A stretch of 64,000 nt of DNA from Bilabrum cf. latius. Lineage: Eukaryota. Numbering within the stretch: position 1 is the stretch's first letter; each line of letters begins with the position of its first letter. Both the position numbers and the translations under genes were made by a program. Below the pieces are notes generated by a model, which was not told the origin of the DNA, did no database searches, and worked only from the letters and a program-made list of their open reading frames with translations. The stretch lies in NCBI GenBank assembly GCA_965178125.1, contig OZ237740.1:620001-684000 (forward strand). Reading direction: 5' to 3'. Shown one piece after another: positions 1 through 64,000 of this stretch.

Positions 1-2
1 CT

Positions 3-1301
3 CAGTTGCATCGGCCTGGCCCCGGCAGCATCATCATCAATGCGAGCAGAAGAGCAGCAGCCCCGATCATCGAGGTGATGTCCAGGCTTGCCCTTGTGGT
101 GGACATGGACTCGGTGTCGGCCCAAGCGGATAGCAAAGTCAGCGCAAGCCACGACGAAGCCCCGGGCCGCGGGCGCGGAACCGAAGCAGAGTTTGTGGCT
201 GCACTGGACGATACACTCGTAAACATTCAGCAATCGAGACACCACGGGCTGGTAGACCCGGACGATGTCCGATTCCGTGCGACCGCAGCGACTGCCTTCG
301 CCATCGCTCAAGCACTCGCAGCACCAGACACGACGGTGACATTTCAGCCCGGCCGCGCCCAAGGCATCTCTCAAGCAATGCGTAGGCGCCAGCAGGACTC
401 ATCGGCGCTCGGCTGGGAGCCCACCACTATGGATCTGGCGGTGTCAGCCTTCGTGTTTGTGGTGGTTCTCGCTGCAGCCCTTGAGGTGGCAGACATGGCA
501 AGCATGTCATCCAAGGAACAGGACTACGCAAAGAAGCTGTACGACAATGGGGGCGTCCCAGCCCTCGCGATTAGCGTGCTGAGCACGGCGTCCCTGGTCG
601 CGCTCTGCGTGCTTGTGTGCTCGGCGGTCTGGAGCGAGTACAGGATGAGCGTCAGCCGCCAGTTCGTCAAGCTGCTTGCAGAGAGGGCGGAAGGGGCCCC
701 GTTCGGGTGCGGGGAAGACGCTTCCTGGATGGCTTCCATGGGCAGGGGCCTGGTTTCTGCGGTGACAACGACGTTCGGCGGCAAGGACGCGTGCTAGAGG
801 TGGGCAGAGCTCATGACGACCGTGGATCTGAGGGATCACGTCGACTACGGATATGCTCTCGGGTAGGCGCTCGTGGGGCCGGCCGCCTCGGTGGCCGAGA
901 CGCTAGTGCAGGGGGTTGTGGGGGTGGCGCTGTCCGTGGGCTTCCAGGCGACTCTCGTGGTGTGCCTTCTGGCCCTGATTCTGACCCTCAGCCTCAGCAT
1001 CGTGGTGCGGTTCGCGGGGCCAGTGCTCATCTAGGGCCGGCAGGAGGTGATGCAGGGGTTTGTGAACTTGCAGCAGAGTCGAATTGCACACGCAGAGCAC
1101 CAGCAGCGCCAGAGGCCCCATATGGGGGCGGTGGCAGCAACCGGGGTGGCAGCCAGTTCGGGTCAGGAACAGAACGCTCTGCAAGCGGTTACCGATGGCC
1201 ATGCAGCTGGTCTCATCCTACCAGGGGGCGGACAAGGCACGGGTGGAGCGAGTGCTGGCGTGACACCAAGCAGCAACGGCGAAGATGATGCGGAGGATTG
1301 A
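3..1301 (+). CDS. Multi-pass membrane protein of unknown function, 5'-truncated by the window
   Basis: ORFs 6..797 and 1047..1301 share a frame, joined only by TAG at 795, 864 and 1032. Ends TGA 1299-1301. Several hydrophobic segments (LAVSAFVFVVVLAAAL, LAISVLSTASLVALCVLVCSAVW, TLVVCLLALILTLSLSIVV). Confidence 0.65.
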
Positions 1302-5232: not shown

Positions 5233-6555
5233 ATGCCTGTTTTATTTGCTGTCGGGTTTCTTGTGGCAGCATGCGCCTAGCTTGTCGCGGCTTCGGATGG
5301 CGCGGCCGCGGGCATGCTAGCTGAAGGGATCCGAAATGCTGCCCTTACCGAACGTAAAGCTCCGCCTGCCATGGCATTCCTGCCATCTCCGTTCGGCACA
5401 CTGGCCTTTGATGCAGCTCAACATATGACTGCATTTGCAATGGCTCGAAACCTGGAGCTGCATCGAGAGCAAACGGACCCGGATGCTCGACTGGATGATC
5501 TCTTCGCAGAGGTGGTCATTGCCAACGCATCGAGCGATGCAGGGATGGACAAAATCAACTCCATTTGCGGCGCGAATGCCGCTGCGGATCAGAAGAAGTC
5601 GCTGCTGGTCATCACGGGCCTCGGCAGTGTGGTGGCGCCCCTGGCGGACGGCTCGTGGGATACTGTCGCAGCTCGATCCGAGCACGATCTGCTGTGGAGT
5701 GTGGTGGACGGGTCGAGCGGGCACTGCCAGCACGCGGCTGTGGTGCTTGTGTGGGAGGTGCCTCAGGACTCGGTGCGGAGCTGTCGCTGGGCGCATGCGT
5801 CTATGGGCAGGTCGTGCGATCTGCCTGTCGATTGCGATGTGGACGGGGAAGAGGGCGGAGATGGTGAGAGCGTGGAGGTCGGGGCGGATGGGAGCAGTGT
5901 TGCTGACGTGGACGATGCGGAGACGGCCTCGCAGGCCTTCGCCCGCCATGTGCGCTGTGGGCTGGAGCAGTCCGGAGCCCGGGCATCGGGCGTGACGGCG
6001 ATGGTGGACAGCCGATTGCTGCCGGTGGTGCGTGGGAGGAAGCGCGTGTTTGACGGCAGCATGTCTATGTTTGGGCGCATGGAGGCTGGGGGGGTGTCAT
6101 TGATGTGGAGAGAGGCGGCGGGCGGCATGGGCGGGATTCTGGCTGACCTGGATGTGAAAGGTTGCGGTGGCGGGCGTGATGTGTGCGAGGTGTGGAAGGC
6201 CCCGGTGGAATCGGGCAAGTCGGTGGAACCTGGGTGGGCTGGAGCAAACTTGTTCTGGTACTTGGGACTACCTGCCGTAGTTTTTGTTGTTGTTTCTTGC
6301 CTGATATGGCTTGTTGCCACAAAGGTGGAACGCGAGGTAAAGCGACCGGCCGAGACCAATACCGACTAGGACTAGGGCAAGCCAGACCAGGACAACAGCA
6401 AGCTGGACCAGGACCAGCCAGACCAGGACTAGGGCAAGCCAGACTAGGACAACAGCAAGCCGGTTTAGGGCAAGCCGGACCAGGATCCGGACAGGCCTGA
6501 CCAGGAGGGGTCGGACCAGGGAGTAGCCGGACCAGGAAAAGGAGGCCGTATCTGA
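5233..6555 (+). CDS. Type-I membrane protein, paralog C (acidic DQ-repeat tail)
   Basis: ATG 5233 gives MPVLFAVGFLVAACAQLVAASDG (TAG 5278), then ORF 5314..6369 with TM LFWYLGLPAVVFVVVSCLIWLVA. Reads through five TAGs in a DQDQGKPDQDNSK repeat; TGA 6553-6555. Confidence 0.75.
5271..6210 (+). repeat. Copy C of the triplicated segment; right arm of the inverted repeat
   Basis: Reverse complement of copies A and B; identity stops after ...ccggtggaa (KAPVE). Confidence 0.95.
6364..6520 (+). repeat. Coding degenerate tandem repeat (gac yag gac yag ggc aag cca / gac yag gac aac agc aag)
   Basis: Repeated units in which CAG and TAG occupy equivalent positions. Confidence 0.85.
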
Positions 6556-6951
6556 TCCCATTAGCCAGGGTTTACGACTAATGAGCTGATTCAGCTCAAT
6601 TAAGGCCTCGCTTTTTTGTTGTGGTTGGCGGGATCTGTGGCCACTTACAGTGAAGCCTAGTGTCGGCCAAGTGTCGTGCATACCTCTCACTATCCATGCA
6701 CGTGAAGTCTAGTTTAAACCCAGGCATTCTTCTATTATTATGTTATATGCCTAGATCACACCATACCAGGCCGCCAGGGCCATCTGCGCCAGGCCCCCGT
6801 AGCCGCCGCGACCGCCCAGGCGTTGTGAAAACAGAACGCTACAATATCTTCTGAAATGCGAATTGCCAATAATTTCAGTCACCGCTGGCGCCCTTATACT
6901 CGTTGCCACGCACTGCATTTCACCGATTGGCAGATTAAGTACACGATAGCT

Positions 6952-8757
6952 ATGAATCGCGTCGTTTTTACTTCATGTGTCATAGTCATGTGTTCGGTTC
7001 CAGTTTTATGCGAAAAGTCCTGGTTATTCAATTGGAACTAGTACGCCGATTCTAGCTCACCTGTCATGTCTCCGTAGGACATGCAGCAGCCACATGGGTG
7101 CGAAAATGTGAATTGCGATTGTAAGCCCAACGTCGACATGAAGCAGGTCAGGTAGATGGTCAAGACTGCCGTCAAGTGCCAAGATCCGGTCATCGACAAC
7201 CTGCTGAAGCGCGTGGAGGACTACGCTTCGAACGAGCACGGGAGCACAGCAGTGATGTTTGGCATGACGGGCACCGGAAAAACGTTTCTGGCTGAAACGC
7301 TGGGTCGCGCCTTGTTCTCGCATGCGCAGGTAGCTCAGTCGTGGATTCCATTCAAGTCTGCTGCAATGGCAGCGTGCTGCGCCCGCAAGAATAGCATCCA
7401 AGAGATGATGGATGTGCGCGGGTCTTGCGTCTTTCAGGTCACTGCAGCGGACATGAACAGCCAGACGACGAGGCAGCAGGCCCTGAGCAAGCTGGCGGAC
7501 TTCGAGCGAGCACACAGCCGTGGCATTGTGTTGCTTGACGAGGTGAACTTTTGGCATGACTTCCAGGACATCACGGGCGTGCTGCTCCCGCGCCTTAAGA
7601 ATCCCGGGAGGCGTCTTGTGATTTCCGGGGCGAACCTCCCAGAGAGCAGCCAGCTGAATGCAGCCATCGCTCCGATGATGGCGTCGGAGCAGTACGAGCA
7701 ATTCTTGACCGATTTCCCGGAGGCAACGGCGTGGTGCGAGCATCAGAGCGACAGTGATAGAATCCGCGCGGCGAAGAACAAGCCCACGGTACTGCATAAG
7801 CTCTGCGACCCGAACTTTGCCTCTGCGAGCCATGTGCGTGATTCGAAACGTGACATGCTGAACTACCTCATCGAGACCGAAGCAACAGTCGTGCTGGCAA
7901 GCAAGAAACGCAGGGAGGTATGTATCGAAGGTACAGAAGAAGACTGGTGCAGTATTCAGGCGAATGTGGTGACTGCTGTTCAAAGCACGCTGCAGAACAT
8001 CGTGCGCATCATGCATGACGTCCCGTCCAGCATTGTGGTGATGATGCCCATCTCCTAGCAGTGCGCGCGAAAGGCAGTCAAGGACAAGGTGAAGCAGCAC
8101 GTGAACTGGCTCATGTCAGACCAGGTGGTGGGCGGGCCAATCTTCCACAAGGTGACGGTCAAGAAGCACGTGCTGGACGAGATCGCGGAGCACGTGATCG
8201 AGGATGCCACGTCCTCGCCAGACCTGTACCTGGCTATCAACGACCCAGAGGATCTCGAGGAGGACGAGCTGTCGCCGTGCTGGACGATCCAGGGGAAGAA
8301 CGGAAAGAACAAGAAGAAGAAGCGGAAGGGTGGGCTGCAGAAGAGGCTAGTGGTGTACAGTAACCTGCTCAAGTCTGGCCTTCGCAGGCTAGGCGACAAT
8401 GTGGCGAACGGCCTCCGCGTGCTGCTAGAGAGGAGCTCGCTGACCGGTCTGCCGAAACGCGGGCAGAATGCCATTGCAAAAGGCGACATCACGCTGCAAG
8501 ATCCCCATTCTGCCGCCGCGCTGAAGTGGTCCTTGACCTACGGCCCGAAGCTGCTCCGTCCCGGCAAGAAGCTGCTCCAATTCATGTCCAAGTGCAGAGA
8601 GTGGGCAGCTGGTAGCTCACATGAGAAGTGCTACCCCACGTGGGCGATGAATGCGGAGGTCCAGCTGGACAGGAACCACGAAGGAGAAATCATCGGTGTC
8701 AAGCTGGGGTAGATCGAGTAGTGGCACGGTGCAGCCGGTGGAAACGATGAGCTCTGA
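6952..8757 (+). CDS. Secretory-pathway AAA+ ATPase, torsin/ClpB-NBD2-like (601 aa with TAG=Q)
   Basis: One frame joins ORFs 6856..7041, 7156..8058 and 8089..8712 through TAG at 7039, 7075, 7153, 8056, 8710 and 8719. N-terminus MNRVVFTSCVIVMCSVPVLC is signal-peptide-like. Walker A GMTGTGKT, Walker B IVLLDEVN, sensor-1-like LVISGAN. C-terminus GGNDEL then TGA. Confidence 0.7.
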
Positions 8758-9333: not shown

Positions 9334-12300
9334 TCAATAATGACCGTCTTGATCATCCGTCGAGCCAGCTGAGGGCGGTACAATAGTGTAGACAACATCA
9401 TTGCTGCCACTGGTGCCCGCGCTGGGGCTGGCATCAGCAGCTGTCTCATCTGCATTGCTGCGCTCTCCCCGATGAAATTCACCTGCTTGATTTGCACTGG
9501 TATCCTAGTCTGGAGCTGCATCGTAGCTAGCACCGGTCTGGCTGCTGCTTCGCACCCCCTCCCTCCTCGAGACCTCTCTCTGCACGTTGGGCGGCAGCCC
9601 CATCTGCAGCCCCTCGTCGATCGTGTCCGCCACCAGCTCATGGTTCGTGGATCCAGACCGCAGCGAAGACACGCTGTGCTCGCTTTGCTCTGTTCCATGG
9701 GAGCGAGGAGTCTTGCCCCTCCACCTCCCACCGGTCGCAGGGAAACCGGGCGCATGTTGCGGGCTGTTGAAGCTCAGTCCGCTTGATTCCTCCCTCACCG
9801 TGCTGAGCCCAGCGCGCATCTCCTCGTCGTAACTATCCTTGCGGCCTGAATCACCATTTACCGGTCGGTCCTGCGCAGCTGCACCCGCCTCTGCGTCTTT
9901 CACTGCGTTCAGATCGATGGCTGGGACCGGCACGGCCTGGCCTGCGTAGGCTGCCGCCATGCCTCCGTACCGACCGCCAGGCTTGCCACGACGGCGACCT
10001 GCCCCAGCGATGCCCCCGCTGGTCGGGGTTTCCACCAAGCCTGAGCCAGACCCCGATCCCGACGACGTGCTGCGCTGGGTAGAATCATCGCTGCCCAGCT
10101 TGCCGAGCGGTACTGGCGACTCACCTGTGGGGGCACCTGCGATGGATGGCACAAAGCCCAGCCGCGGCTTGGAGATCTAGTTGTTGCCGGTACCTGCACC
10201 GGCAAATGACTGCAGCTTGGTTGGAGAGTCCTTGGGCTGCCTGGTAGTGCTCGTCCCTAGCTGACCAGCTCGCTTCCGCGGAGAATCGTCAAAGAATCCC
10301 CGCTTCCCCCCTTTGCCCTTGGACGAGCCAGGAACCCGCTTGGCACCTTTGGCGGGTGCCGCAAGCAGAGCCGCCTCGTGCTGCCAGTGCTGGTGGATGT
10401 GATCGCTTGGAGGTGTAATCACCTGTCCCGCTGTCACTGCAGCCCCCCGCCGCCGCCCATCCGACCCGTCGCTTCCGCCGGTATAGTCCTCCCCCCTCGA
10501 AGCGGTCCTCGCCATGATTGGAAAGAAGCCGCCGGGTCCGTCTTCCTTCGAGTACATGTTGCCGCGGGGGCGGGGCCCGGTGCCGAGGTCGTCAGGCTCG
10601 AACGGCTAGTCTAGCTCCAGGGTCCTCTCAGCATCTGCGGGCCCCTCGCGGTTGACGCTTGATTCGGGAGGCACGAAGATGGCTTCGCCACGACCGTCCG
10701 TAAGGTGGGAGTCGGCCGCGCCTGCGGTCTTTTGGGGCGATTCGTGCTTGGGCTAGCGATCAAACATCCCGTACTGCTTCTTGATCGACCTCCTCTCCCT
10801 ACGCTGCACTCGTCGCACCTGTGACTTGGTGCGAGGCAGTCCGCCTGCCTTGCCTTGGTCCTTGTCAGCCGCAGGAGTCGGCGTTGGGGTCTCGTACCCG
10901 TCCGTCTGCTCCCCGCCCGATTCATCCGAGCCCTGCACGAGCTCCTGAAGCGCCTCGCGGTGCTTCTAGAGGGCCGTTTTTGGCCTGCGCACCTTGATTG
11001 GGGGAGGGGCTAACGAGCGGTGGTGGTCGTGCTGCTGTGCCACAGGCCCGTGTCCCTGCTGCGTCACTGCGATGTAGCCTCCAGTGGCAGGATCGAACGC
11101 GATCGGCACGTCGCCTGGTCCCTCTTCTGAGCCACGTCGCGCGAGGAAGCGCGCGGTCTTCTTCCGCGCGAAAACTGGCGCTCCTGGATACAAGCCACTG
11201 CCCGTTCTACTGTGGCTGCTGCCTTCATCCAGCTGGAGCTGCAGTGATGGCGGGGGTCGACCGCCAGCATCAGGGGATGCAAACATGGTAGGAACCTGGC
11301 CAGGCTCGAGAGGGGTCCCGCGTAGCAGGTGCATGGGCTATGTCTACGATCGAGCCATGGGTTGTGCTGCGCCTGCAGACCCGCCTGCCGGCATGGGCAT
11401 CGACTCGGCCCTGCGGTTGGCTCCAGGCGCATCCGTAGATGCGTGCTGAGCCTCGTTGGCCTGGTGCTTGGCAGCATCTGCGGCGCTGATGGGCTGCATG
11501 ACTGGCTCGGAGTCCATTCCCATGACGCCTCGGTCTTCTATTTCGTACTGCTTGCCCTCGCCACCTTCATCGGCATGAGGACTAGACATCGTGCCGTTCT
11601 TCACGTGGTGCACGTGGGCCTTGGAGCTGCCCAGGCCCGTCCACGCTGTGTTTGTGCTGGGGTCCCAGATAAATCGACTGCGGAGCGAGCTGGCTATAAA
11701 TACGGGGGTACAAGTCGTGGGGGTGAGGGGCCAGCACTCGTACGGTTGGCGTCGCATGTGGCGCCAGACAACTCACTGCTGAAGAAGCTCGATTTGCCAA
11801 GCAACGCTGCGAGCGGTAGCAAAGGAAAAGGCGCGCACAAGTTCATGTCAGCGGGGCACGAACAATGGGGGGGAATCAGGCCTGTTCGCACGATGGTCCA
11901 AACTCACTCGATGTCGTAGTACCCCCCGCGCCGACAGCAGCACACAAACTTGTTCGGATAGACCCGGTAGTCGACCCTGTAGCAGCAGGGCCTGCAGCAC
12001 GCGTGGAACGAGGACCTGCAGCACCGGTGCACCTGGAATAGGATAGAGAAGAGCAGCTTGGATCCACCAGTCAGGATGATCATGCCGGCCACGTAGGCCG
12101 CAAACTCGGGAAGCCACCCGTAGAAGAGCACGATTGCGACCAGAAGCGCGTTGGATAGCACCCAGATGCTGACCATCCGTAGCCTGAAGTTATTGAACTC
12201 AGCGGCGACTTGGTCCTTGTCGACGTGCAGCTCTTGCGCCAGCCTAGCAGCCTTCCTGGCGCGTTCTTCTCTCTCCTTGCGCCTCTTGTGGGCCTTCTTA

Positions 12301-15300
12301 ATCATGGCCAAACTGAGCCTGACGTCCTTGTCGTCATCCTTTAGCTTCATTGCTGCGGTTTGCTCGCCAATCGCTGGGGGGCCCAACGGTGGCATCTCCT
12401 GTGTGGCTCCAGTGGACGGCAGAGCAGATGCAGCCAGGCCACCGTAATCGCCCGCAGGAGCCCTGCCAGCGACGACAGGCGTAGATACCGCAATCGTCGA
12501 TCTATTAGTAACTTCAGTTTGTGGCGTTTCCAGCTTTGCCGCCATGACTCGCTTCGCTGCAGCTTTCTTGGCCTCTTGGTGTGCCGACAGCACCTGCATC
12601 TGCTGCTTGCTCCTCGTCGGTTTGAGCACCCTTCGCGGCACCGCATTATCCTCCTTGCCGGCGCTCGCAGCGCTCGCCGATGCTCCTGCTCCATGTCCCT
12701 CCGATCTGCTGGTGACGCGGTTAGCGAGCTACTGCACCTGCCGATCGGCTGCGTCATCGTCCGAGCTAAGCTCAGACGAGTTCACGCTGATCCCGCCTAT
12801 TTCAAAGCCGGAGCCATCGGATACGCTTCCATCGAGTCGGAGGCTGGCCATCGCTTGTGCAGCACCATCCATGTCATCAAGCGCGACTGAAACCATCGAC
12901 TGGCGCCTGTCCATGCCCCCGCTCTTGCCGTGGCGGCGTCGGTGACCGCGGTGTCGGTACTGCGAGCTGTGAGTCTTCTTCTTGGCCTTCCTGAATATGC
13001 CCCGCCCATCAGAGGATCCTTTATCGCTATCAGAAGGTGCATTGACCTCTTCCAGAGCAGACGATCCTCGTTCTTGGAGAAGCTTCCTGAGGTCGGCCGT
13101 TTCTGAGCGCCTGACTGTGCCGGAGATGGGGTCGTCGTTGTCGACAATGATGTTGCCGCCCTCTTCGACATCTGAGTAGCTCCCACTGCTAGAGCTCCCG
13201 TCCGAATCATGGTCTTTAGGACTGTAGCCCTGGAAAAATGAGCTTTTCTTTGATAGCTTGCGCGCCATGGCCGGTCGCACCTTGCCTGGCTCGTCGCTTC
13301 GGTCCCTCGATGCACCCCGCATGCGACTCTCGCTTCGTTTGCGGTGCATGGTCCGATGCCGGCGCCGATGCCGCATCTGGCCGCGGCCATCGTTGCCGTG
13401 GTACTCGCCATCAGCCAGTGTGGCGAGTGCCCGGCTACTGCCCTGCCGGCGGTACGCGCGGCGGGCCACATAATTCGCGTGCTCCAGCTTCTCCGAGTGG
13501 CGGACGCTGCCCTGCAAGTAGGTGTCCAGTGTCTTGACTAGCACCGACTCGGCCACGCTCTGCTTCCTTGCAAGCTTGATTCTGGCCATTGTGTCGTGAT
13601 GGTCGGGCAGACCTCCCTACCCGTGACCAGCGACATCACCATTGGAAGCGGCGTCCGATGGAACTGTGGCAGCCCCAGCGTCTAGGCCATGCTTTGCGAC
13701 CGGCCCAGGCGGCGTGCCATGATCGTCACTTGTCGCACCCCCCTTGCCGACATCGGGGCCACCATCTGCTGCCGGCTCCACCAGCGCATCCGCACCGGCC
13801 TCGCCTTTGCCTGCATCAATGCTGGTAGATGCTGCAGCGCCTACATCGTCGCCAGGCTAGTGCGTGAGGTCTTGGACATGGGGTGTAGCTCCAGCCGCAG
13901 CACGCTAGACTTGAGCTGCTTGCCGCTCAGCAACAGCCTGAAGCAAGCGCTGCTCGTCTTGTTTCCGCTGCTTGTGCCTGCGCTTCTTCGACTTTTCCAC
14001 CTGCTTCTTCGTCAACTCTGCCATGCGAATGAGCCCGTCGTTCAACTCTGCTGCGGCTACAATGTTCTGCTTAGCTTCAGTCTTGAGCTGGCGGGACATC
14101 TCCATAATCGAGCCACCCTCGCGGTTCCCCCACGACACGTCGTGCAGCTGCGACCAGCTGTAGATCTGGAACGAATTTAGGAAGGTTGGCAAGAAGAACA
14201 GGTAGAGCGGGTAGCTGATGAGCGTGAAGAGGAAATCGTAAGGCCCATGGAACAGGGCAGCCCCGAGATACACGATCTGCGCGACGATCACCGTCACGAT
14301 CACAAAGAAGCTGGCTTCTAGAGTCCCGATGACGAAGGCGGCCGCAAGGAGGGCCAGAAACATGGCAATACCCCACAGAATGCATGCGATGAAGTAAACG
14401 TTGGACAGGTCCTTGAGTCGCCCGGCAAGGCCCAGCACGAGCTGAAGAAACAACAACGAGATGTAGAGGAACGGCAGCCCCAACTCCAGCTCCTTCTCGC
14501 CAGCAGGAGCAAACACAAGCGCCGAGAAGAAGATTACCAGGAACGACAGGAGCAGGGTGCCGACGGAGAACCAGCTGACGATAGTCTCCAGAAAGAAGAA
14601 CATAGACTGCATGAAGAGCACGAACTTCTAGCAGCACGAGTGGCCCGACGACATGATGCGATGCAGCTGGGACAGCTGCCAGAACTGCACGAAGACAGAG
14701 CCGTTCAGCCAGCGACGCCTTTGGCGAATGAGAGTAGGCAGGTCGTCTGGGACGTCAGTCTCAGCGACAGAGCCCTCGACATACGTCAGCTTCCAGGCGC
14801 ATCCCTCCTTTGCCACGACCTCCCAGCACAAGATGCGGTCCTCGGCGAGGTACTGGTTGGCAACGAATGGGCCCAGCTTCGCGATGCTTTGCTCCTCCGT
14901 CAGGAAGAAGCTTCGCAGCGGCTCGCCCCGAATGGCTTGGTACCGCACCGCAGAGAAAGCGCCTGGCAGCACGGTAAGGTACCCAAAGAAGCTCTGGAAT
15001 GTTTTGTCGAGGAGGTGCGCCTGCTTGTACTCGAAGAACTGCGCGGCGTGCAATGGGTCGTAGCACTTGTACTTGCGCACCGTGATCTCGCCGCAGCATC
15101 CACCAATCTGCGACCGATGGTAGGAAAGTGAATCTTGTGGCCATGGCAGTTGGGATAGTTAGGTGCACAAAAAGCAAGCCAGCACTTGAAACCGAGATGT
15201 ACCTCACGAAGGGGTCCTGCTCCATTGTGCTGACAAGCTTGCTGATTGCGCTGGGACGGGGCACCGTTCCCACGTCAAGGAACAGGACATACTTGGGGAA

Positions 15301-18511: not shown

Positions 18512-18984
18512 CCTGCGGGCACGTTTTTAATATAGTCGTAGTAGGTCTGTGCGTCATCAGCATGCCTTGCGGAACCACCCGCCCGCCAGCGCACTGTCTG
18601 GCTTGTGCCAGTGGTAGCGATCGTGTATATATCGATGTAAATAGTCAGAAACTCTTTGAATTACGTAAATGCATGCACGAGGCCTCTGTATGCCTCCCAA
18701 AAGTCTGTTCAAGTTGCAGCCCCCTCTCTTCCTCCCCACCTTCATCAATCACAAGCCGCTGCGCTCTTTGTCCAAGTCGCATAAACACCCTGTGCAAACT
18801 CAGGTACTTCGGCCTGCCATTCCTGGCGTGCCTACTGTCCTGCGAAATGCCTTCAAGCTCAGAGCAATGTGCCCCAGTTGTACCTAGCTGGCCGCGGTGC
18901 CCCACCCAGCCCCCACACAAGCCCCTACAGCGCACCAAGCCAGCCCAAGCCACCACGACAGCAGTCGAAGTCAATCGCCCATGC

Positions 18985-21622: not shown

Positions 21623-22495
<873 letters not shown>

Positions 22496-22771
22496 TGATA
22501 GAGAGTGGTGGGCTGTGCCGGCTTGCCTATGCTTGGCTGGTGAGGGAGGCGGCATGAGTTGGATGTGTACTTGAAATCGGTAAGAGCAGTGCCAGGATAG
22601 CACGCAAACGTAATATTTTGTGTCAAGCAGCCACATGACGTGGTGGTCTCCGGTGCGCACGGACGCGCGCTCGCATGATTTGATCAGCAAGCCTGTAAAA
22701 TTAGGGCGAGCACAGTCACAGCGGTGCACCTTCGGCCGCGCAAGCCATGCGGCTACACCCGAAACTAATCA

Positions 22772-36382: not shown

Positions 36383-36501
36383 AGTCGTTGCCTCTCCCAG
36401 AGGTACTGTGATTCCACAAAAAAATAAAACTACAACATTCGCGACTGCGCTCGTCACCGCAATTCTTTTCTGTCGAATATTGATACCGCAGTTCTCGGCG
36501 T

Positions 36502-44941: not shown

Positions 44942-44952
44942 GACTTTAATAA

Positions 44953-47570
<2,618 letters not shown>

Positions 47571-52580: not shown

Positions 52581-52843
52581 GGCAGAGGGTTGTGGGGATG
52601 AGCGCGTTTACCCCGTATTGCGGTGGTCATTGTCACTGCGCTGTACTCAGAGGCAAATTTTCGTGCAAATCGGGATGCAGCAGTATGCGCAGCTAACAAG
52701 CAGTAAACAAGCATTTCGTCCCAAATCTGTGTCACGTGTGGCGGCGCCTCTTGCTTTGCTCCTCAGCTTCCGCGGTGCCGTTGGTGTTCCTGACTCCTTC
52801 TGCGCTGTCTTCGGGCCTAGGCCGCACCTGTCCCGCGCGTGGA
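52421..52843 (+). repeat. Right copy of the direct duplication (orphan Sec23 3' fragment plus functional kelch 3' end)
   Basis: Matches 47411..47818. Confidence 0.95.
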
Positions 52844-55119
52844 GAAGAAGGATGCCCTTCAATGCAACCCCCTTCAGCTGCGGCCGAGCTTGCTTTGGAG
52901 CTAGATCGCTCCCCCCTCTCCTGCTGTGTCTCTTGCGGAGCCTCCTCAAAGGAGTGAGGCAGCGTATGGTGGCCCAGGATGGACCGCAGCACCGGGGAGT
53001 CGTGAGGGATGTGCTTGCTGTGCAGCACGGCATGGACCCAGCCAGCTAGACCCCTGCAGGCCACCCGCTCGTCCCAAAGCACGAATTCTGGCGAAGCGAG
53101 CACCGTCCCCTCTCGCAGCCCAGAGGTCCCACACAGCTTCTCTCGAGGCTTGGGGCGACCGGTCTCATCCAGCTCGACTGGCTCATCCACTGGCTTCTGC
53201 CCGGCCGAAGGCACGACCACGTGAGGCTTAGACTAGGCTGCAGCACTACCGCTAGAGCTGAAAGAGGAAGAAGACGCGATAGGGTGCTGCCCTGACATGC
53301 TTCGCACCACGCCCGGGCCCGTTGGGTCCTCCTTCATGTGCGGTCGCAGGTACGAAGGCGGGTGGGCAACTTCGCCCCCAAATAGAAGCAATCCGGCACA
53401 CGCGTGATCGCTGGAATCGGCCGATCCAGGAGTGGCCGAGGACGCGGCAGATGCGTCGTGAGATAGCGCCGGCCCTGCGGCCGAGGACCGTGGACCAGCT
53501 GAGCCCTTGTTTGGCTGGGTCCAAGGATCCGCCCCAACGGGGGCACCGTGTGCGTCCAGAGCGCCGCGCACCCACATACCGCTGGACATGGTACGTATCA
53601 GCTCCGATCTACGAGCAAGATCCACGCTGGGTGACGGAGCCGAAGCAAGAGCCAGGTCGGCGGACCCCCCTCTCGGCAGCAGCGATACCTTGGTCCAATG
53701 CGCCCTGAGCACGTGCACCTCCTCTGGCGCATCAATCTCGCTCCCCTCACTCGATGGGCCTGCCGAGCTCAAACCGGCACCACCAGATGCCACCGTGGAC
53801 ACCTGCTTGGTGCCTGCCTCAGCAGCTGAGCTGACCTCATGCTCGCTGAGCTGCTCTCCCGTGTCAAGCAGGTGCAAGACGAACGCGTCTGTCATTGCCC
53901 CGTCCTCCATCTCGCCACATAGCACCACACTCCTCATCACATTGATGCCAGGAGCAGGTGCAGCTGAGTTTGTTTCAGCGTCGGGGCTCTGGTCCGGCCA
54001 CACCTCCACGTCGGGTAGCGACATACACACTGCGCCGCTGAAGGGTGGCGGGGACTCCCCGGTTGCAACCAGCCGGTACCACTCCCTGCCCTCCAGGTCA
54101 AACAGTCGCAGTTCCCTCGCCCCCAGCCTTGTTCCCTCGGTGTCCTTGCCCCCGAGCACAGCCATGTACCTGTCTCCCAGCAGGCAGCTGCAAGCCTGCC
54201 GCCGAGGGTGCGGGGGCGGGCAGCTCCCGAACTGCTGGATGCTGGTAGATTTCGAGCGGGAAATAGGGGGTGTTGGGGGCCCGCTTGTACACTGTGAATG
54301 TTCGGAAGAGGGCTTGACCCCGCTACCACTGGATGCCCCGACCGCTGGGGTACTTGGGGCGGCAGTAGCTGACTTGGTAGATCCAGGCTCGGGTGCAGTG
54401 CCGGATGCACTACTTTTCTTCTCATCTGGTGCTATTCCTCCCGAATGCAGGCATTCCCAGTCCAGCGTGTCTGCATCCAGCATCCACACGTCATTGTAGT
54501 GGGCCCACTTTGGCCCCAAGCCTCCGAACAGCAGCAGAGCACCCTCGGTCGCCCATTGCGTGCAGGCCGCAGAGCATCTCCCGGAGGGACCGGTCGCAAA
54601 GCCGGATTCCCCTCCGCTCCGCAGCTACCTCCATTCACTAGGCGACAGTCCCGCGCAAAGCTCACTTTTGCTGTCAAGGGTTCCCGAGCTGAACTCGTCT
54701 GAAAACACGAACCCGTCTTGCGCGCCACCAAACACGAGGACAGTATCGTCTGCGACAGCTAAGGCAGCGCTATATGCGGTTGCTTTGGGTCTACTGGTTC
54801 GCCTGAAGGTTTGAGCTTCGATTATTGGAAGCAGAGACACTTGGTCGAATCGAATGCTGATTTTCTGCGTTCTTGGCGTATAGTACAGGTCCTTGCTGAT
54901 TCCATCATGCAATAGAAGCGTGTTTCCACAAACTGCTGCACCAGCACCAGACGTTGGCTCCATGCCATCGCACCGGAGTGGAACACAGTGTAGACTATCC
55001 CTGCAAGAAGCTGCCCCTGCCATCGCCGCGATCGAGTCGGAATCGGCGCCGCATAGACTTTTTGATTCAACCCGTTCTTCGATCACGTGTGCTATAAATA
55101 GGGGCCTTTTCAATGGCAT
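52732..55119 (-). CDS. Kelch-repeat (beta-propeller) protein
   Basis: VLVFGG, LLLFGGLG..HYNDVWMLD…W, PPHPRRQACS..MAVLGG…FDLEGREW. One frame through TAG 54625 and 53233; TGA 52732. Start codon uncertain. Confidence 0.75.
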
Positions 55120-55266
55120 TGTGTCAATTAGATTGTGTGCTCTACATCGTTCGAGAAGGTCAGTGAAAAACCCGATGAAGGTCTTCGCAATGGTACAGTG
55201 CAATGCACCAGTCTTGGATGCACTGCACTGTAGCAAGCCGCAAGGCACCCACTTTTTGTTCGCCCT

Positions 55267-58200
55267 ATGGAAGGCAGCAGCGATACACCAGCGCAGGTTA
55301 CTGCACCCACTGCAACTGTGGTTGAAACTGTAACCGATACCAAGGCTGAGGTGGCGGCATCAGGGACCACAGATGGCAGTGGAGCCTCCAGACCCCAGGA
55401 GGGCACGCCCAAGCCGGACACAACGGAGCCAAAAGCCGGCAAAAAGAGGAAGCGGAAGCCTAAGAACAAATGGGCGATCCTGCTTGGATACTGCGGAACG
55501 GGTTACTGCGGGCTACAGATCAATAACAACGTGCCTACCATCGAGAAGGAGTTGTTGTAGGCTCTGGGAAAGACTGGATTGGTGCCACCGCACAACATGG
55601 ACTTCAACAAGGTGAGAGTACGTTCGTGTCTTCTATCATATCATGACGGACATAAATTTGTCGGCTAGTCTGATCTGATTGGGAGCGAACTGCGCGGAGA
55701 ACACCATGGCAGCGATCTTCGCTCTCAACCGCTCTCTGCGCACACAGGTCGGATACAGTCGTGCCGCACGCACTGACAAGGGAGTTCATGCATGTGGAAA
55801 CGTTCTTGGAATCAAGCTGGAGATGCACGATCACGAGAAGGAGGACGCCATTCGAGGACTGAACGCCGAGCTGCCGCCGACCATCCGTGTGTTTGACATG
55901 CAGAGGGTCACCTTCGGCTTCAGTGCCCGAACGTATTGCAGCTCCAGGCACTACGAATACCTCCTGCCCACAACTGCCCTACGTGATGTCTCAGACCAGG
56001 ACTTGCCCCTTGCCCGCGAGCCTCGGAGGGCACTCACCCAGGCGCAGAAGCTGGCACTCCTGCAGGAGGCATAGGCCAAGGAGGAGCAAAAGAAGGCTTC
56101 CGCTTCCGGCGCGAGCGATGGGGCAGCTGGCGGCCAAGTTGCCATGCAGGATGGAGAGAATAGGAGCGAGGCAGGGGGTGCTGCCGCATCCTCGTCGTCC
56201 TCGTCCTCGTCCTCGTCCTCTGCAGCACTTGCGGCTGCGGCGGGCACTACTCCAGAATCAGGCCCAGACAAGGAGCATGAATCGACCGAGAATGCAGAGA
56301 AGCGAGCAAGAATCATTAAGGCCCTTCAGCAGGACCCGCTCGTCACACGATCTGCCTATGAGGGCAGCGGTGTTGGCCTCGGCATAGTGGGCGGGGATCC
56401 ATTTTCCTGGGTCGAGGCAGCTGACCTCGCCGGGCCATGGTTGGCGCCAGCAGCACCTGTGGGAGCAGCAGCACCTGCTGCCTCTTCTTCGGGTGCAGCT
56501 CCTATGGAGGACGACAGCGCGGGTCAGCCTTCTTCGGGTGCTGGTAGCAACGAAGGGAAGCCGGCACCGCCCTCGTCTGCATCGTCTTCTTCCTCCTCCT
56601 CCTCCTCGGCATCAACCACTGCCGCAGGCTCGGCCGCCCCTGCGCCGGCCCCGGCCTCCCGAGGCAACTCTTCAAGCAAGCTGCCGTGGAGCTGGAGCCT
56701 GCTGCTGACGATGCCATTCAGCAAGCCTGCCCCCGGATAGTCACCAGCGGGCGGTGCCACAAGCCAGTAGGACCGCGTGGCAGCCATCCAGTCCGATTCG
56801 TTTGCAAATGGTAGCGCTTTTGCAGCTGGGCGCATCGAGGAACTTTGCGTGTTGGCTGCCGACTGCAAGAAACAGAGGGATTGGGGGTATCGCGTCAGGC
56901 CCGCGCGGCTGCAGCTGCTGCGCGATGCCTTCAAGTGCTTTGTGGGCACGTACAGCTTCCACAACTATACGCCCAGGCTGAGCGCCGGCGATGCTCAGGC
57001 CAAGCGAACTATCCTTGACATCACAGTATCAGAGCCATTCCTGGTGGCCAAGTCGGGCCGCATGCCGGGCGTGAAGGCAGTTGACCGTGCGGCTGCCAAA
57101 GCCACCCACGCCATGTCGGTGCGCGCCAGGACGCTGGGCAAGGGTAACCCAGCCCGTTTCAGAAAGAGGCAGGCTGCAACGGCGGCTGGAGGGGCCAAGG
57201 CAGCGGCTGCTGCCGGCTAGGCTGCGATGGAGTCCGAGTCCCGGCCCACTCAGGCATCCTCCTCCTCCTCCTCCTCCTCCTCGTCCTCCTCGTCTCCGGC
57301 AGCTGCAGCGGAATCAACGCCCACGGCAGTGGATACGTCGCCTTCGGCTGGCATGCCGGACGCTGCCGGTCCTAGCAGTGGAGCTGGCGCTGATGAAGCA
57401 GCTCCCATGCGGTCGAATAGGGCGGCCGGGCAGACTGGCAGCTAGGCATAGGCTGCCATGGATGACGACGAGGAAGGCGATTCTGCTGCTGCAGCTGGCA
57501 AAGAGGAAGAGGAAGAGCATGATGAGGGGGAAGAGGAAGAAGAAGAAGCTGTGCCTGCCCTGACTCAGGCGGATCTTGAGAAGGCAGGGCCGGATGGCGC
57601 TCTAGAGTTCGTGCGCATTTCGCTGCATGGTGCCTCTTTTGTGCTGAACCACATCAGACACATGGTGGGCATGGCTGTCGACGTAGCACGCGACTGGGCC
57701 CCTCTTTGGATCGTGCCCATGTCGCTCGACGAGGTGAATCTGTATGCCCCGCTGGCACCGCCGGACGGCCTATTCCTACACTCTGCCGAGTTTGATCGGT
57801 ACAACGAGCGCTACAAGGAGACGCATGCGCTTCTGTGCCTGCATGAAGGCCCCGCGAAAGAGACGATGACAAGGTTCAAGGAGCAGTTCATATGGGGACA
57901 TATCGCGAGGTAGTGCGCCTGGCAGCGGCCGTACGAGCAGTGGGTTGAGAACGAGCTGGATCGACGCAAGCACGGCATCTTCTGGTACAGGATGCGCAAG
58001 CACGGCCTAGACCTGCGCAGGCAGCTGGGGCACACAAGCAAGGAGTCCATTGAGGTCGCCATCTTCCGAAATTTCGCGAGGATGCAGCGGGAGATAAACC
58101 CCGGGCTCAAGCACCACGAGGTGAAGGATGAGTTCAAGCGGAGGAAGCGGGCGGGGGAGTTCCGTGACGCCATGCAGCAGCAGCTCATGAATGCCCGTGA

Positions 58201-58513
58201 CGGGAGGGTGACATCAGTGGGCCAGGGCTAGGGCTAGGGAGGAGGAGAAGGAGAGGGCGCCGATGGGGAGAGGCCTCTAAAGATGGCCCGCGTGTTCACT
58301 GGTAAGGACATGGGCCTGTCTTTCTCCAGGGGAAAGAAGGGCGGCAGGCTAGGACGTGGGCGGGGTGGGGGCCGCGGGGGCGGTAGGGGTAGGGGTGGCG
58401 GACGAGGGCGAGGTGGGGGCCGCGGGGGAGGCGGGGGGGGTCGTGGTGGTGGGGGTCGTGGTGGTGGGGGCCGCGGTCGAGGCGGGGGGCGTGGAGGGGG
58501 GCGAGGGCGGTGA
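55267..58513 (+). CDS. PUS1: tRNA pseudouridine synthase, TruA/PUS1 family, with low-complexity inserts and RGG tail
   Basis: LLGYCGTGYCGLQ, catalytic ARTDKGVHA, RHYEYLLP, FVGTYSFHNYT, GASFVLNHIRHMVG, APPDGLFL. Intron 55612..55747. In-frame TAGs (55558, 56072, 56738, 57218, 57911, 58229, 58235 and others). TGA 58511. Confidence 0.9.
58350..58510 (+). repeat. G-rich low-complexity segment encoding an RGG/GAR domain
   Basis: Translates as GRGRGGGRGGGRGRGGGRGRGGG…. Confidence 0.9.
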
Positions 58514-58562
58514 AAAGGTGCTTTATAACATGTATCTTGAGACAACATTCATCATGCGCGGG

Positions 58563-59453: not shown

Positions 59454-62400
59454 ATGGCTCCGACTACGGGATCCCGAAATATATAGTTGGCCGTTCTCAC
59501 CATGGGTTTTATTGGAAGTACATGGGCATAGAACACAGCCTGTAAGAGAGCTGAGATTCGAGAGAATCAGAGTACAACATGTAGACCGTTTGTAGCACTT
59601 CCAGCCGATATCTTCTGGCATTCTATGTCACTTCTTCACAGTGTGGGTGCCCGGCGAATGGTCCGAATGTACCTAGCCATGTGGTGGAGGGGTCTAGATC
59701 CGAGATATATTTTGTATCGGACCAGATGGTAACGAGGCCGCTGTGACACGCTGCTCGGGCGACAGACCAGACCCTGTTCAGGATTGCAACGTTGGTCCTT
59801 GCGGTGAGACAGCATAAAGCTATGCAAATGCACATCCGATAGTTGAGCTCATGTTAATAAGGCTTGCGTCTCCTGCCCTTCAAGCCGCAGAAGCTCTTGA
59901 AGTTGGGCAATTTTCTTGCCTGGCGCCGAACAATCCTTTATCCTGTCCTGCCGCGTGTAAGTAGACTCGAATGGCAGTTGTGCTGACTATCATCTAGTGA
60001 CGTTTCCACTATGTACCGGCACCCCCCTCGCATCGGTTTTGCTCCAAACCCCGCAGTCAGGGCAGGTGGTGACGTCAAGGTGATCGTGAGGTAGGCGCGG
60101 CTGCTCCCAGACCTCGATGGGTTCGGAGTAGCGGGTGGCGACACGGATGCGTACGTGCGCGCCACCATCGGGTTCATGTCCAGAGAAAGCAGCGTAGTCC
60201 AGGACTCGAACAATCCTCGCTGGCCCGCGAACCGGGAGGGGGTGCCAGAGGGGTACGGACACGAGATGAGCTTCGGGGTGAGGGACAGCGGGGAGACGAT
60301 CGAGATCCAGCTGCTGGACCGAGACGGCGGATTCGAATTCGGAGACGACCTCATCGCATCCTTCCAGGCGGTGGTTCCCGGTTGTTCCCCATTCCGAGGC
60401 TCCGAATGCGCGGAGAAGAGCTTCCTGCCCGTCGATCCCCAGGTGCCCTGCTACAGGGAGCGGAACGCGTCCCTGCCGGTTCTAACCTCCAGCTGCCTGC
60501 TGATCGAGGTGCGGGTGACGCCCATCCAGATCCAGCCCATGCGCACGTTCGATGACGATCTATACAGGCCCACTCTCGACATCGCCACGACGTTCCCGGC
60601 CTCGACAGGCAGCGGAGGGGTTGAGTTCGGTGCCGTTCCATACCAGACCGCGCTGGGCACGCCGGGATCCGAGGCGCTCGTGGCTGCCGCGGAGCGCTTC
60701 GTCGACGCTCGGCGCTCCATCCTAGTGCGAACTCGCCGCGGAGATCAAGGACTGGTATCGGATGAGTACGTGCGGTTCACCGTGTCGCTAGCCAGCGACG
60801 TGTACATCTTCGTGCCTGCCCAAGACCTGCAGTCCAACGTGCAGCCGCCATGGCTCGTAGAACGAGGCTTTGAAGAGACCGACACGTTCGCGAGGTTTGA
60901 GGGCAGGGTGGGGTCTGACCTGGACGTGGGATCGAGAGGGTTCAAGAAGAGGTACAGAGAGGGCGCTACGGTGTCTCTGCCATCATACTACAGGCCGAGG
61001 GATGCAGAGCTCGTCAACGGCACGCTGGAGGTGCCGAGGCAACTCACCGCGAGTGACATGTACTTTGTGGCGGTGCGTCACGCGGTGATCGACGACTCGC
61101 CGCCACCGCCCTCCGGCAAGGAGTTCGAGAGGGACAGGTTCCTTGAGCTGCTGCCCGAGTTCTTCATCCCCGCTGCATTCCTCACCATCCTCTCGGCAAC
61201 GTTCTTGCACCGCGTGAGGTACCGCCTTGACGAGATCGAGCCATATCTGACGACCCGTGTGCTTCCAGAGACTCCGAATGAGGAGAGTCGCAGGGCCAAC
61301 GCGTAGGTGGGCGTGTACAGCTCCAAGCAGAGAGCCCAGATGGATCTTCTGGCTGGTCTTTTCCTCTCGCACGGCAGGACAGCCGCCAACCTGAGGTATC
61401 GTAGGCACCTGTTCTGGATGGGCCTTGCCATGCGAGTGCTGGTGTGCCTGCCCATGCCCATCGTGATCATGTGGGGAGCTGTGTGCGTGCAGCAAGTGTC
61501 CCCTGCTCAAGTTGGCTGGGGCATCCTGCTGGTTGGGCCTGCTTTGCTCATAGGTGGCTTGGCCATGGGGCAGTGGTATCACGCCAACTGGCGGGCGACT
61601 CAGTTCGTGGTGCAGTGCTTCGCGGCCTCTGGTGTTTTGATTCTCGTGTACCTCGTCGTGGTTGTCTTCGTGGACCCTCTGCCTGTGTCCGCACCTGCTG
61701 TTGCCTCCGTGTTCCTGACACTGGGCTTCCTGCCTCTCGTTTGGATTGCGTTCAACGCCAACCCTCACGGTCGCACGAACATATCTCGCCTGGCCGCCAA
61801 GGCACGTACCCACGCAAAACTGGGGCAGGCAAAGAAGCGGCTGAGGCAGCTCGGTGCCATGGGGGCCCTGGGCCGGGCTGCTCTATCGGTCGCTGCCGCC
61901 GGGGAAGGCGATGGAGACGGCAGTGCGGACGAAGGCAAGGGGCGGGGAGGGGCCACAACACAGCTGCTGGCTCAACTGGGCCACGCCACGGGTGGCTAGA
62001 CCGAGGACGCAGAGGCTGAAGCCGCGGCTATCGCTGCTGCGGGTGGTGCAGCGGCCGTGTCTGGGGCCCGTGGTGCCGATGCTCTCGAAGGGGTCAGCAC
62101 GACCGCCCTGCAGGCGGCTGCGTACGAGATGGACCGGCGACTGAGCGCGCCGTATTGGCTCGAGGGCGGTGCCAGGGATGCTGAAACCGTGGACGATGGG
62201 GGCGGGGGGAGCCGCAGCGCCGCTGCGCAGTCGGCTGCCAAGGGCCAGGAGCAGCCGATCGCTCAGCTGCTGGGCGAGGAGCTCTACTCGATCCACGCCG
62301 CACACCCCTCGGGTGCGTTCCGGGCCGCTGATCCGATCCACATGTGGAGCCAGGTGGGCAGCAACGAAGGCGTAGACGAGGACTCTGCCAGGCTGGCAGC

Positions 62401-64000
62401 ACAGGCGGCCAGGGACAGAGGAGATATGGACGCGGCTTCCAAGGCAGCGGCTATCGTGGCCCGGGCGGCGGATTCGCGGGCTCGGCAGCTGCGGTGGGCC
62501 TACGCCATGTCTGCTAGCTGCCTGCTGGCCATGGCGGTGATCACGTGGGGTGTCGTCCCGGACTACCCGCACCTCGGCGCTGCTGCAGGCGCGTTTACTC
62601 TCGTGATCGACCTAGTGATGCTCACCAGCCTGCGTTCAGGGCTGTTGCTGTGGAGCCCCGGGTACATGTGCACAATGATGGCTCTGCAGCGTGTGTTCAC
62701 CGCGGCGTTCCTCGGGAGGTACTGGCTGGTTGGCTTCACCCTGGCTTTCCTTGTCATGTGCACCGCCCTGGCCGTGGAGGCGGTCTCGCAGTACCTGCCG
62801 CTGACCGACCCGTTGGATGCCGGTGCTGTGGCATACCTGGACGCCGATCTGAAGGCTTCCGAACGCGCTGGATTCGGTGGTGCCACTGCGTCTTCCCGAG
62901 GACAGAAGACCCCAAAGAAGAGAAAGGCTGTCGCCGGCTTGCCTGAGCCCATTCCTGCCGATGCGTCAGGGTCACCGGCGTTCGGTAGCACTATTTTGTG
63001 GGTGGCATTCCTGCTTCTATTGTCGGCCGTCGTATTGTTTGCATCGGGAGACGGGTCCGAGGCAGAGATATCATTCATTGCAGCTGATATTCCGGTGTGG
63101 ATCTTGGGCGTGGCCGGTCTCGTGCTGGTTCTGCTGGTAACCCTTGCATTTGCAGCATGGCGTGCCGCGCATCTGAGCTCCATGGGGCTGCTGCCTCGAT
63201 CCCTGAGGGGGGTATATCTGTGCCGCCCTGCTTGCGGAGTTGCCTTCCTGCTGGGCGCTGCTGCAGAGGCACTGCTGGTCCTTTCGGGCCTGCTGTTCTT
63301 TTCACTGTTGGACTCGCCGTCCGTGCTAATCGCATGCGTTCTGCTGCCCCTGCTGATTGCGATCGTTGGTCGAGTGGTGGGCCAGTGGATTGCGAACGAC
63401 TACAGGTTCCTGCAGCCGCCCGACCGCAGGCCCGTGGTCAGCGATGCTTACGCCAGAGCCATCGAGGCTCGGAGCGTCGAGGCAGAGGCGCGAGAGCGGG
63501 GTGTGACCTCTGGGCAGGTGTGGAAGGAGCGGCGCAGCGAAGAGCGAGGAAGGAGACTGCTGGAACAGGTATCCAGCGAAAGCGCCGACGTGCTTGGTCT
63601 TGCACAGCAGGGAATCGACACAAAGGACCCGCAGGGCGGGAAAGATGCCGTGCAAGGCGACCCCAAGGGCAAGGATGGGGGCAAGGACGAGGCCAAGCGT
63701 CCATCTGACGCGTCCCTTGCTTCTCTCTCAGAGCTCCCGGACCCTGACGAACCTGACGATGAATCCAAGGAGGCAGAGGACGACGCAGGCGCTGAATCTA
63801 GAGGAAAGGCTGCCGGTAGAGCTCCGCCTACGGCCGCAGAAATAGCTCAGATTCGGGCCAAGTACAAGGACTGGGCGGCCAGGATGGGCGACCCGAAGGC
63901 CATGAGTGATTGGCAAGCATTCTGGGGCGGCTTCTGCGGCATCACGGACTACGTCTCCGTCGCAGCGGTGATTGCCCTCGTGGTCGTTCTCGTTGTGGGG
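59454..64000 (+). CDS. Polytopic membrane protein with signal peptide, thrombospondin type-1 repeat and C2 domain; 3'-truncated by the window
   Basis: Exon 59454..59541 is signal-peptide-like (…LAVLTMGFIGSTWA*). Exon 59642..59803 is TSP1 (WVPGEWSECT*PCGGGV*IRDIFC…CNVGPC). Exon 59891..59956 follows, then 60057..>64000 with C2 (VIVR*ARLLPDLD…DAYVR…NNPRW…LLDRD…DDLI) and more than 10 hydrophobic segments. Intron phases are consistent. Confidence 0.8.

Follow-up and report, generated by a model that had tools for sequence, protein, structure and literature searches.

Genes of the window and their in-frame TAG codons

The subject of this analysis is a 64,000-nucleotide (nt) stretch of contig OZ237740.1 (GenBank assembly GCA_965178125.1, positions 620,001 to 684,000 of the forward strand), referred to here as the window, in which nearly every gene is interrupted by TAG within its reading frame. 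The evidence set out below makes it highly probable that the stop codon UAG has come to encode glutamine (Gln, Q) in this nuclear genome, which probably belongs to a Cafeteria-related stramenopile, with UGA (the main stop) and UAA both still terminating, as in the code of NCBI table 15. The G+C (GC) content of the window is 56–64%, and the genes and open reading frames (ORFs) considered are as follows, with all positions given in window coordinates.

45070..47570, plus strand: Sec23 gene; TAG at 45441, 45528 and 45540 in the zinc finger; TGA stop; one RNA-supported intron (45273-45361)
36484..40383, plus strand: HECT E3 ligase (UBE3C-like); TAG at 37069, 38398 and 40153; TAA stop (40381-40383) directly after ...GFDLS
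18985..20887, minus strand: PP2A B55 regulatory subunit; at least three exons; TAG at 20690, 20402 and 20327; TGA stop; aligned with B55-alpha in the PDB
16775..18526, minus strand: gene3, without a Pfam family; TAG at 18359, 17978 and 16967; TGA stop
40733..45013, minus strand: 3'-5' exonuclease-domain protein (Pfam DNA_pol_A_exo1, 7.7e-27); TAG at 44858, 44663, 44627, 44183, 44099, 43952 and 42791; TGA stop
55679..58513, plus strand: pseudouridine synthase (PUS1-like; Pfam PseudoU_synth_1); nine TAGs at 56072, 56738, 56768, 57218, 57443, 57449, 57911, 58229 and 58235
52732..55359, minus strand: Kelch-repeat protein (Kelch Pfam families); TAG at 54625 and 53233
59642..59802, plus strand: thrombospondin type 1 repeat exon (Pfam TSP1_ADAMTS, 1.6e-12); TAG at 59674 and 59695; flanking introns 59542-59641 and 59803-59889
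59987..64000, plus strand: large membrane protein whose frame runs past the window end; TAG at 60092, 61304 and 61997; 1,338 codons, open only if TAG is sense
11904..16482, minus strand: chitin synthase, spread over two reading frames or exons (Pfam Chitin_synth_1 and Chitin_synth_2); TAG at 15610 and 14628 in conserved parts, with more in the tail at 13905, 13857, 13617 and 12729
21842..25266, minus strand: PX-domain protein kinase (Pfam PX and Pkinase); TAG at 24887
25604..30565, minus strand: 1,653-codon ORF without a Pfam match; nine TAGs; TGA stop; open only if TAG is sense
30606..33197, minus strand: TmcB-like TPR membrane protein (Pfam TPR_TmcB, 2e-12); TAG at 32931, with position 32954 in a neighbouring exon frame
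35300..36382, plus strand: cis-prenyltransferase domain (Pfam Prenyltransf, 1.3e-73); TAG at 36071, at the domain end
6829..8757, plus strand: AAA/torsin-like protein (weak Pfam AAA_16 and Torsin matches); six TAGs

Pfam scans of the long frames, in which TAG was masked as X, identified HECT, 3'-5' exonuclease, both chitin synthase domains, PUS1, cis-prenyltransferase, Kelch and TPR_TmcB families, with further matches to all five Sec23 domains, PX plus protein kinase, WD40/B55 and TSP1. Homology alignments cross the TAGs without a frameshift in Sec23, HECT, B55, chitin synthase and TSP1. The Sec23 protein scores 709 bits against human Sec23A in an alignment over residues 41–774 that crosses its three TAGs, and the HECT match (1.3e-83) covers profile positions 2–306 of 306, up to the last residue, with the same protein aligning with UBE3C over 327 residues and reaching the end of the UBE3C chain. 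For gene3, the weakest aligned relative carries PF14885. An earlier note on this DNA had placed a C2 domain at the start of the 59987..64000 frame, where the Pfam search gave no family.

We counted codons in 16 confident coding segments, defined as those for which Pfam, the PDB, an orthologue or the great length of the ORF gives support, and in their 12,966 codons found 53 TAG, no TAA and no TGA, alongside 389 CAG and 99 CAA (TAG therefore makes up 9.8% of TAG, CAG and CAA combined). Adding three TAGs from B55 exons 1–2 and two from the TSP1 exon brings the confident total to at least 58, and with less certain ORFs it reaches about 85, so that the figure of more than 60 given in the earlier note is reasonable; its description of frames that continue past the TAGs without frameshifts and without internal TAA or TGA is borne out by the alignments and by this census. 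All six of the sites that it quoted (20327, 20690, 59695, 40153, 32954 and 60092) are in-frame TAGs, although at 32954 the frame reads IDFF-X-VRRF and not IDFF-X-ML as it had given. Counted over both strands of the window, the stop triplets number 1,754 TGA, 926 TAG and 358 TAA, and since TGA is the commonest of the three and yet is missing from the confident frames, the in-frame TAGs are not due to chance.

The longest stop-free frame under the standard code is 774 codons, and reading TAG as sense extends the longest frames to 1,653, 1,426, 1,338, 1,299 and 1,084 codons and raises the number of frames of at least 500 codons from five to 19. Reading TAA as sense leaves frame lengths nearly unchanged. 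We rejected ORF length as a decisive test of the code, since the number of long frames grows still further if TGA and not TAG is taken as sense (20 of at least 500 codons), and for this reason the argument is based on homology instead.

We compared window positions 40100–60099 with contigs of four public runs (X1, X4, X5 and X6) from three studies. X4 and X1 are DNA-like, with an even depth of about 25–50 in most bins and no splice-like joints, and X5 and X6, which are labelled with other organisms, belong to two other studies. In the contigs of this second pair there are eight GT..AG deletions (45272>45362, 48310>48428, 48535>48618, 49477>49717, 55609>55746, 59541>59642, 59802>59890 and 59956>60057) which are missing from X4 and X1, and this indicates that spliced transcripts are present in X5 and X6. 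The eight introns measure 89, 117, 82, 239, 136, 100, 87 and 100 nt, in keeping with the earlier estimate of about 90–230 nt. Of these, intron 55610-55745 lies inside the stop-free frame of the PUS1-like gene, whose coding part was counted from 55746, and intron 59957-60056 lies inside the frame of the large membrane protein. Depth in X6 was 278 over Sec23 versus 14 over the exonuclease gene, a gene-to-gene spread of about 20-fold.

Among the contig pieces listed for X5 and X6, those of X6 cover at least 20 and those of X5 at least 15 of 25 TAG sites in seven genes, with no other letter at any of them, and three further TAGs (the two of the TSP1 exon and 60092) lie inside joint-bearing contigs. 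Gene by gene, X5 and X6 contigs span 45362–47594 of Sec23, an X6 contig spans 40471–44944 and with it all seven TAGs of the exonuclease gene, another X6 contig spans 52814–55135 of the Kelch gene (each of these without other letters), at least eight of the nine PUS1-like TAGs fall within the listed X5 and X6 pieces, and the TSP1 exon lies entirely within joint-bearing contigs of both runs. HECT 40153 and PUS1 56072 fall outside the X5 and X6 pieces among those listed, and we conclude nothing from this. No differing letters were reported in X5 or X6 across the whole compared stretch. The earlier note had named CAG in messenger RNA and the splicing-out of TAGs as outcomes that would speak against its reading; we looked for both in the spliced contigs, which hold TAG and no CAG, with the TAGs sitting in exons. 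UAG is a regular in-frame codon of expressed, spliced and conserved genes, and there is no support for an origin of the TAGs in assembly error, for their editing to CAG or for their loss through splicing.

The residue read at UAG

When metagenome contigs were scanned with the B55 protein, a 9,648-nt contig (L001, 54% GC) came up which is collinear with window positions 25266–16821 at 67–84% nucleotide identity and carries orthologues of the PX-kinase, B55 and gene3 (the latter with 67% identity over 552 residues). This synteny, together with the orthologues, indicates that L001 comes from a related species, and its genes contain in-frame TAGs too. We took 11 alignments of at least 55% identity, with 1,951 residue pairs, and derived the substitution counts from these same alignments. 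The window TAGs face Q four times, TAG twice and R once in L001, and the L001 TAGs face Q five times, K twice and E, G, H and V once each in the window (the V pair is poorly aligned). Taken together, the partner of TAG is Q in 9 of 16 pairs of TAG with a residue, with K in two and E, V, G, H and R in one each, and two further sites are TAG in both; ordinary Gln conservation in these alignments is 0.62. The log-likelihood of the partners is -29.6 if TAG is Gln, compared with -58.5 for Glu, -62.1 for His, -64.3 for Arg and -69.9 for Lys, giving Gln a lead of 28.9. In the B55 orthologue the sites 20690, 20402 and 20327 are Q, Q and TAG, respectively, and in the PX-kinase the TAG at 24887 faces Q in L001, with the L001 TAGs facing Q, E and Q in the window.

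Distant homologues agree with this result. At B55 20327, 105 of 109 full-length homologues have Q (the others being three gaps and one V), at gene3 18359 Q is found in L001 and in 13 of 14 distant homologues, and TSP1 59695 corresponds to Q in three of four distinct thrombospondin repeat domains (thrombospondin-1 repeats 1 and 3 and the circumsporozoite protein) and to I in the other (repeat 2). The gene3 16967 column is Q in 6 of 14, with E in a 95%-identical database fragment. Five exonuclease sites, compared with 149 homologues, fall mostly in variable or poorly aligned columns and carry little weight, with Q the commonest residue at one of them (22/149). Summed over the 13 distant columns for which counts were available, the log-odds are +4.9 for Q, -2.1 for A, -7.1 for T, -9.1 for S, -14.5 for E and -17.0 for K, so that Q leads A by 7.0 units, and wherever a TAG in B55, gene3 or TSP1 falls in a strongly conserved column, that column is Q.

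A further hint toward Gln is found in a short repeat within one copy of a triplicated gene described below.

6380..6555, plus strand: internal peptide repeat in copy 3 of the triplicated gene; a 24-nt unit in two versions, one with CAG and the other with TAG in that position

The two versions of this unit read KPDQDNSK and KPD-TAG-DNSK.

The assignment of UAG to Gln made in the earlier note is therefore upheld by two independent sets of alignments which agree, the L001 orthologues and the distant columns, and the lack of Gln enrichment at TAG columns, which it had named as counting against the assignment, did not occur. Its more particular statement that TAG occupies positions that are Gln in these families stands for B55 20327 and TSP1 59695 and is weaker than it had put it for HECT 40153 and for the B55 site in EEF*DAD (20690), which falls in a Thr/Ser column; two of the Sec23 sites, too, are in Pro and Glu columns.

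Termination codons and alternative readings

If the ratio of TAA to TAG tracked that of CAA to CAG (99:389, with 53 TAG), about 13 in-frame TAA codons would be expected in the 12,966 confident codons, and none was observed. When TAA is read as sense, in-frame TAA is found only at the 5' edges of frames or past C-termini. The TAA stop of the HECT gene coincides with profile position 306/306, and another two TAA are met in the 103 codons between it and the next TGA. Sec23, B55 and the L001 B55 orthologue end in TGA at conserved ends, as do most other frames, and none of the three homology-fixed C-termini of this one window (Sec23, HECT and B55) ends in TAG. Judged from these sequences, UAA is still a terminator and no sense codon, as the earlier note held, and UGA is still a terminator, the main one, and no sense codon either.

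We suggest that a tRNA-Gln with the anticodon CUA would decode UAG and not UAA, by analogy with other UAG-only reassignments described in the main text of PMC5304391, where CUA is given as the only anticodon which reads UAG but not UAA (Panek et al. 2017). By the same analogy, eRF1 would be predicted to have lost or weakened its recognition of UAG (third-position G) and to have kept that of UAA and UGA (PMC5304391). An Rfam scan of the window gave no match.

Several observations weigh against our interpretation and should be set beside it. Many TAG sites, as far as the alignments tell, are in variable columns or in columns which prefer other residues: the three Sec23 columns are respectively a mixture of G, H, A and R, P in 94 of 120 homologues (Q in 9) and E in 79 of 120 (Q in 5), the B55 20690 column is T in 74 and S in 11 of 109, HECT 40153 faces K, R and R in the three alignments displayed out of 77 matches, and the chitin synthase TAGs face K and R in PDB alignments. 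At about 6090–6110 of L001 (B55 exon 2) the conserved Lys of EEKINK, encoded by AAG in the window, is replaced by a TAG, which may be a real K-to-Q change or an error of the metagenome contig. The HECT stop is the only homology-fixed TAA stop. The label 'RNA' for X5 and X6 is an automatic guess, with X6 flagged 'probably DNA', and no RNA source is recorded for the Sec23 stretch; we read RNA from the splice joints. Finally, a tRNA scan of the window and L001 found no tRNA gene, the eRF1 gene lies outside the window, and the decoding tRNA and eRF1 are inferred only.

The columns which face E, K, R, T or P are also what might be cited for the view that UAG encodes some residue other than Gln, for instance Glu, Lys, Leu or Ser as other UAG reassignments do, but in both sets of alignments these score well behind Gln (E, the best of the alternatives in L001, at -58.5 versus -29.6, and A, T, E and K all negative in the distant columns), and we regard this reading as very unlikely. 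We think much the same of a code of the NCBI table 6 type, in which both UAA and UAG (UAR, where R is a purine) are Gln and UAA goes unseen because of the high GC content: UAA and UAG usually change jointly according to the main texts of PMC5304391 and PMC11687900, and TAA is less frequent in the window than either of the other stop triplets, but the missing 13 or so in-frame TAA codons, the confinement of TAA to ORF edges and positions past C-termini, and the HECT gene which ends in TAA at the last position of its profile all speak against it. That the TAGs are not translated as such, being assembly or base-calling errors, marks of pseudogenes, or sites edited to CAG or removed by splicing, has no observation in its favour and is extremely improbable given that the four runs from three studies hold no differing letters at the TAG sites covered and the spliced contigs keep TAG, that the independent metagenome contig L001 has TAGs of its own, two of them at identical orthologous sites, and that TGA and TAA are missing from the TAG-bearing frames, which is unlike decaying pseudogenes.

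Another reading is a dual meaning, with UAG read as Gln inside genes and acting as a context-dependent terminator at some gene ends. Context-dependent UAG has been described for some ciliates and for Blastocrithidia. With only some 20 gene ends to go by, it may still hold here, and TAGs are found shortly before TGA in the AAA-like gene (16 and 13 codons), a Cys-rich ORF (16 codons) and the 1,653-codon ORF (33 codons). However, at a density of 4.1 TAG per 1,000 codons about 1.6 would be predicted in the last 20 codons of some 20 genes, so that the three observed are no excess, and the homology-fixed C-termini end in TGA (Sec23, and B55 in both the window and L001) or TAA (HECT). We therefore consider a dual meaning improbable and retain the reading of UAG as Gln with UGA and UAA as the stops. 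It should be noted that the TAGs at 8710 and 8719 of the AAA/torsin-like gene lie inside its last 16 codons, and that this is a possible case of UAG as a terminator.

Placement of the organism, related codes and minor observations

The best Sec23 homologues are 54–56% identical, and the named ones among the top 120 are stramenopiles except for one haptophyte. In a FastTree phylogeny of Sec23 (67 rows) the window protein is sister, with Shimodaira-Hasegawa-like (SH-like) support of 82, to a clade of four with support of 100, one member of which is in a 90% cluster containing the Cafeteria roenbergensis Sec23; the window protein and this clade lie within a set of eight supported at 98, and the query branch is long (0.62). 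A quick IQ-TREE phylogeny of B55 (49 rows) joined the window and L001 proteins with support of 100 inside a clade of 20 supported at 99, in which the sole named organism is Cafeteria (with a row from a Symbiodinium sp. KB8 assembly at zero branch length to it) and which is separate from oomycetes, Platysulcus, fungi and holozoans. These trees suggest that the organism is probably a stramenopile of the Bigyra near the bicosoecids, with the qualification that two single-gene trees do not settle placement. As the earlier note had suspected, it is not a ciliate, with both trees placing it beside Cafeteria in the stramenopiles, and this placement makes an origin of the code independent of Iotanema and the ciliates likely. 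We also considered an aphelid origin (Amoeboaphelidium, UAR = Gln) and dropped it, since TAA does not act as a sense codon and since Sec23 and B55 both have stramenopile proteins as their closest relatives. Halocafeteria seosinensis was likewise set aside, its genome having a GC content of 46.8% (10.64898/2026.06.25.734631) compared with 59–60% here.

The Cafeteria-clade proteins are full-length predictions, as would be expected under a standard code there, suggesting that the change is younger than the split from Cafeteria, and the presence of TAG at two orthologous sites in the window and L001 suggests that it is older than the split between these two. Among the proteins labelled Symbiodinium sp. 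KB8 (P0214 and P0442), the B55 is at zero branch length to that of Cafeteria roenbergensis, and the Sec23 clusters with P0023, which puts it in the set of eight (support 98) together with the window Sec23 and the Cafeteria clade. Going by these sequences, the KB8 assembly probably contains a heterotrophic flagellate contaminant.

Among the closest known codes is that of the fornicate Iotanema spirale, in which UAG is Gln, UAA and UGA are stops and eRF1 has a T32G change in the GTS motif (main text of PMC5304391). The two are alike in that only UAG is reassigned, to Gln, that UAA is kept as a stop, and that the predicted mechanism is a tRNA-Gln(CUA) with an altered eRF1. They are unlike in that Iotanema belongs to another supergroup, whereas the organism of the window is stramenopile-like in the Sec23 and B55 trees, is GC-rich (59–60%) and has TGA as its main stop. 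UAG is also Gln in the ciliate Protocruzia tuzeti and in two phyllopharyngean lineages (main text of PMC11687900), and the codon table of these ciliates and of NCBI table 15 (the Blepharisma nuclear code) is identical to that proposed here, so that translation with table 15 gives the proposed reading; the window organism differs in being no ciliate, in having ordinary spliceosomal introns of 82–239 nt and in having Cafeteria as its nearest named relative.

Codes in which UAR is Gln are listed in the main texts of PMC5304391 and PMC11687900 for many ciliates, Hexamita, the oxymonad Streblomastix, ulvophyte algae and the aphelid Amoeboaphelidium. They resemble the present case in the reassignment of a stop to Gln, with TAG as a minor Gln codon, and differ from it in that UAA is here never sense and ends the HECT gene. 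Reassignment of UAG alone to other residues is described in the same texts for the rhizarian exLh (Leu) and for Scotinosphaera (Ser), which share the uncoupling of UAG from UAA but not the residue, Leu and Ser scoring far below Gln here. A change that affects UAG and leaves UAA alone ranks with the rarest that the nuclear code has undergone, the known cases being Iotanema, a rhizarian, Scotinosphaera and a few ciliates (PMC5304391, PMC11687900).

This is a new lineage for a known code variant of the NCBI table 15 type. On balance we also lean towards regarding it as the first reassignment of a stop codon in a stramenopile nuclear genome, and as an independent origin of the code with UAG = Gln and UAA = stop, in a GC-rich genome with TGA as its main terminator and in a bicosoecid-related clade of at least two species, the window organism and the L001 relative. 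Our literature search turned up no nuclear UAG reassignment in stramenopiles, with the qualification that it covered main texts only and incompletely, so that a report may exist, and the public runs date from 2025, so that a published report may be pending. A further independent case would add a different supergroup and a GC-rich genome to those known. If our reading is true, it offers a natural experiment on how eRF1 uncouples the recognition of UAG from that of UAA, and would let GC pressure be weighed against near-cognate reading by tRNA-Gln as drivers of such changes, in an organism which is apparently culturable, as both genome-like and transcript-like runs exist.

There are also practical consequences, as gene callers using the standard code cut these proteins at every TAG, and annotation, phylogenomics and contamination screens would need table 15. 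Two database fragments, P0241 (100 amino acids) and P0408 (392 amino acids), are 96% and 95% identical to the exonuclease-domain protein and gene3, respectively; they look like standard-code calls cut at TAGs from a very close strain or species, and P0408 has E at the 16967 TAG.

Several minor features of the window were noted in passing. A gene of about 0.94 kb without a Pfam family is triplicated at 1791–2730, 4093–5027 (direct) and 5271–6210 (inverted), with the copies 98–99% identical; a TAG near the N-terminus is common to all three, and their C-terminal tails differ, with a D/Q/P-rich repeat in copy 3. A direct repeat of about 370–380 nt (98–100% identical) is found at 47411–47775, where it contains the last 53 or so codons of Sec23, and at 52421–52800, where it overlaps the 3' end of the Kelch gene, with a 5-kb block between the two copies. 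This repeat explains an odd joint in the X5 and X6 contigs (47594>52614, with 55 shared letters), which may be due to the route that the assembler took across the repeat or to an allele that lacks the block. At 47995–48133 there are 11 clustered variant letters at about 40–60% of the depth, seen in X4 and X1 only, which may represent a second allele of this intergenic stretch or a paralogous copy. Finally, the depth of X4 rises to 775 at 58109–58775, compared with about 43 elsewhere. The PUS1-like gene has its Gly/Arg-rich (RGG-like) tail in this place, and low-complexity matches of other contigs are the probable cause.

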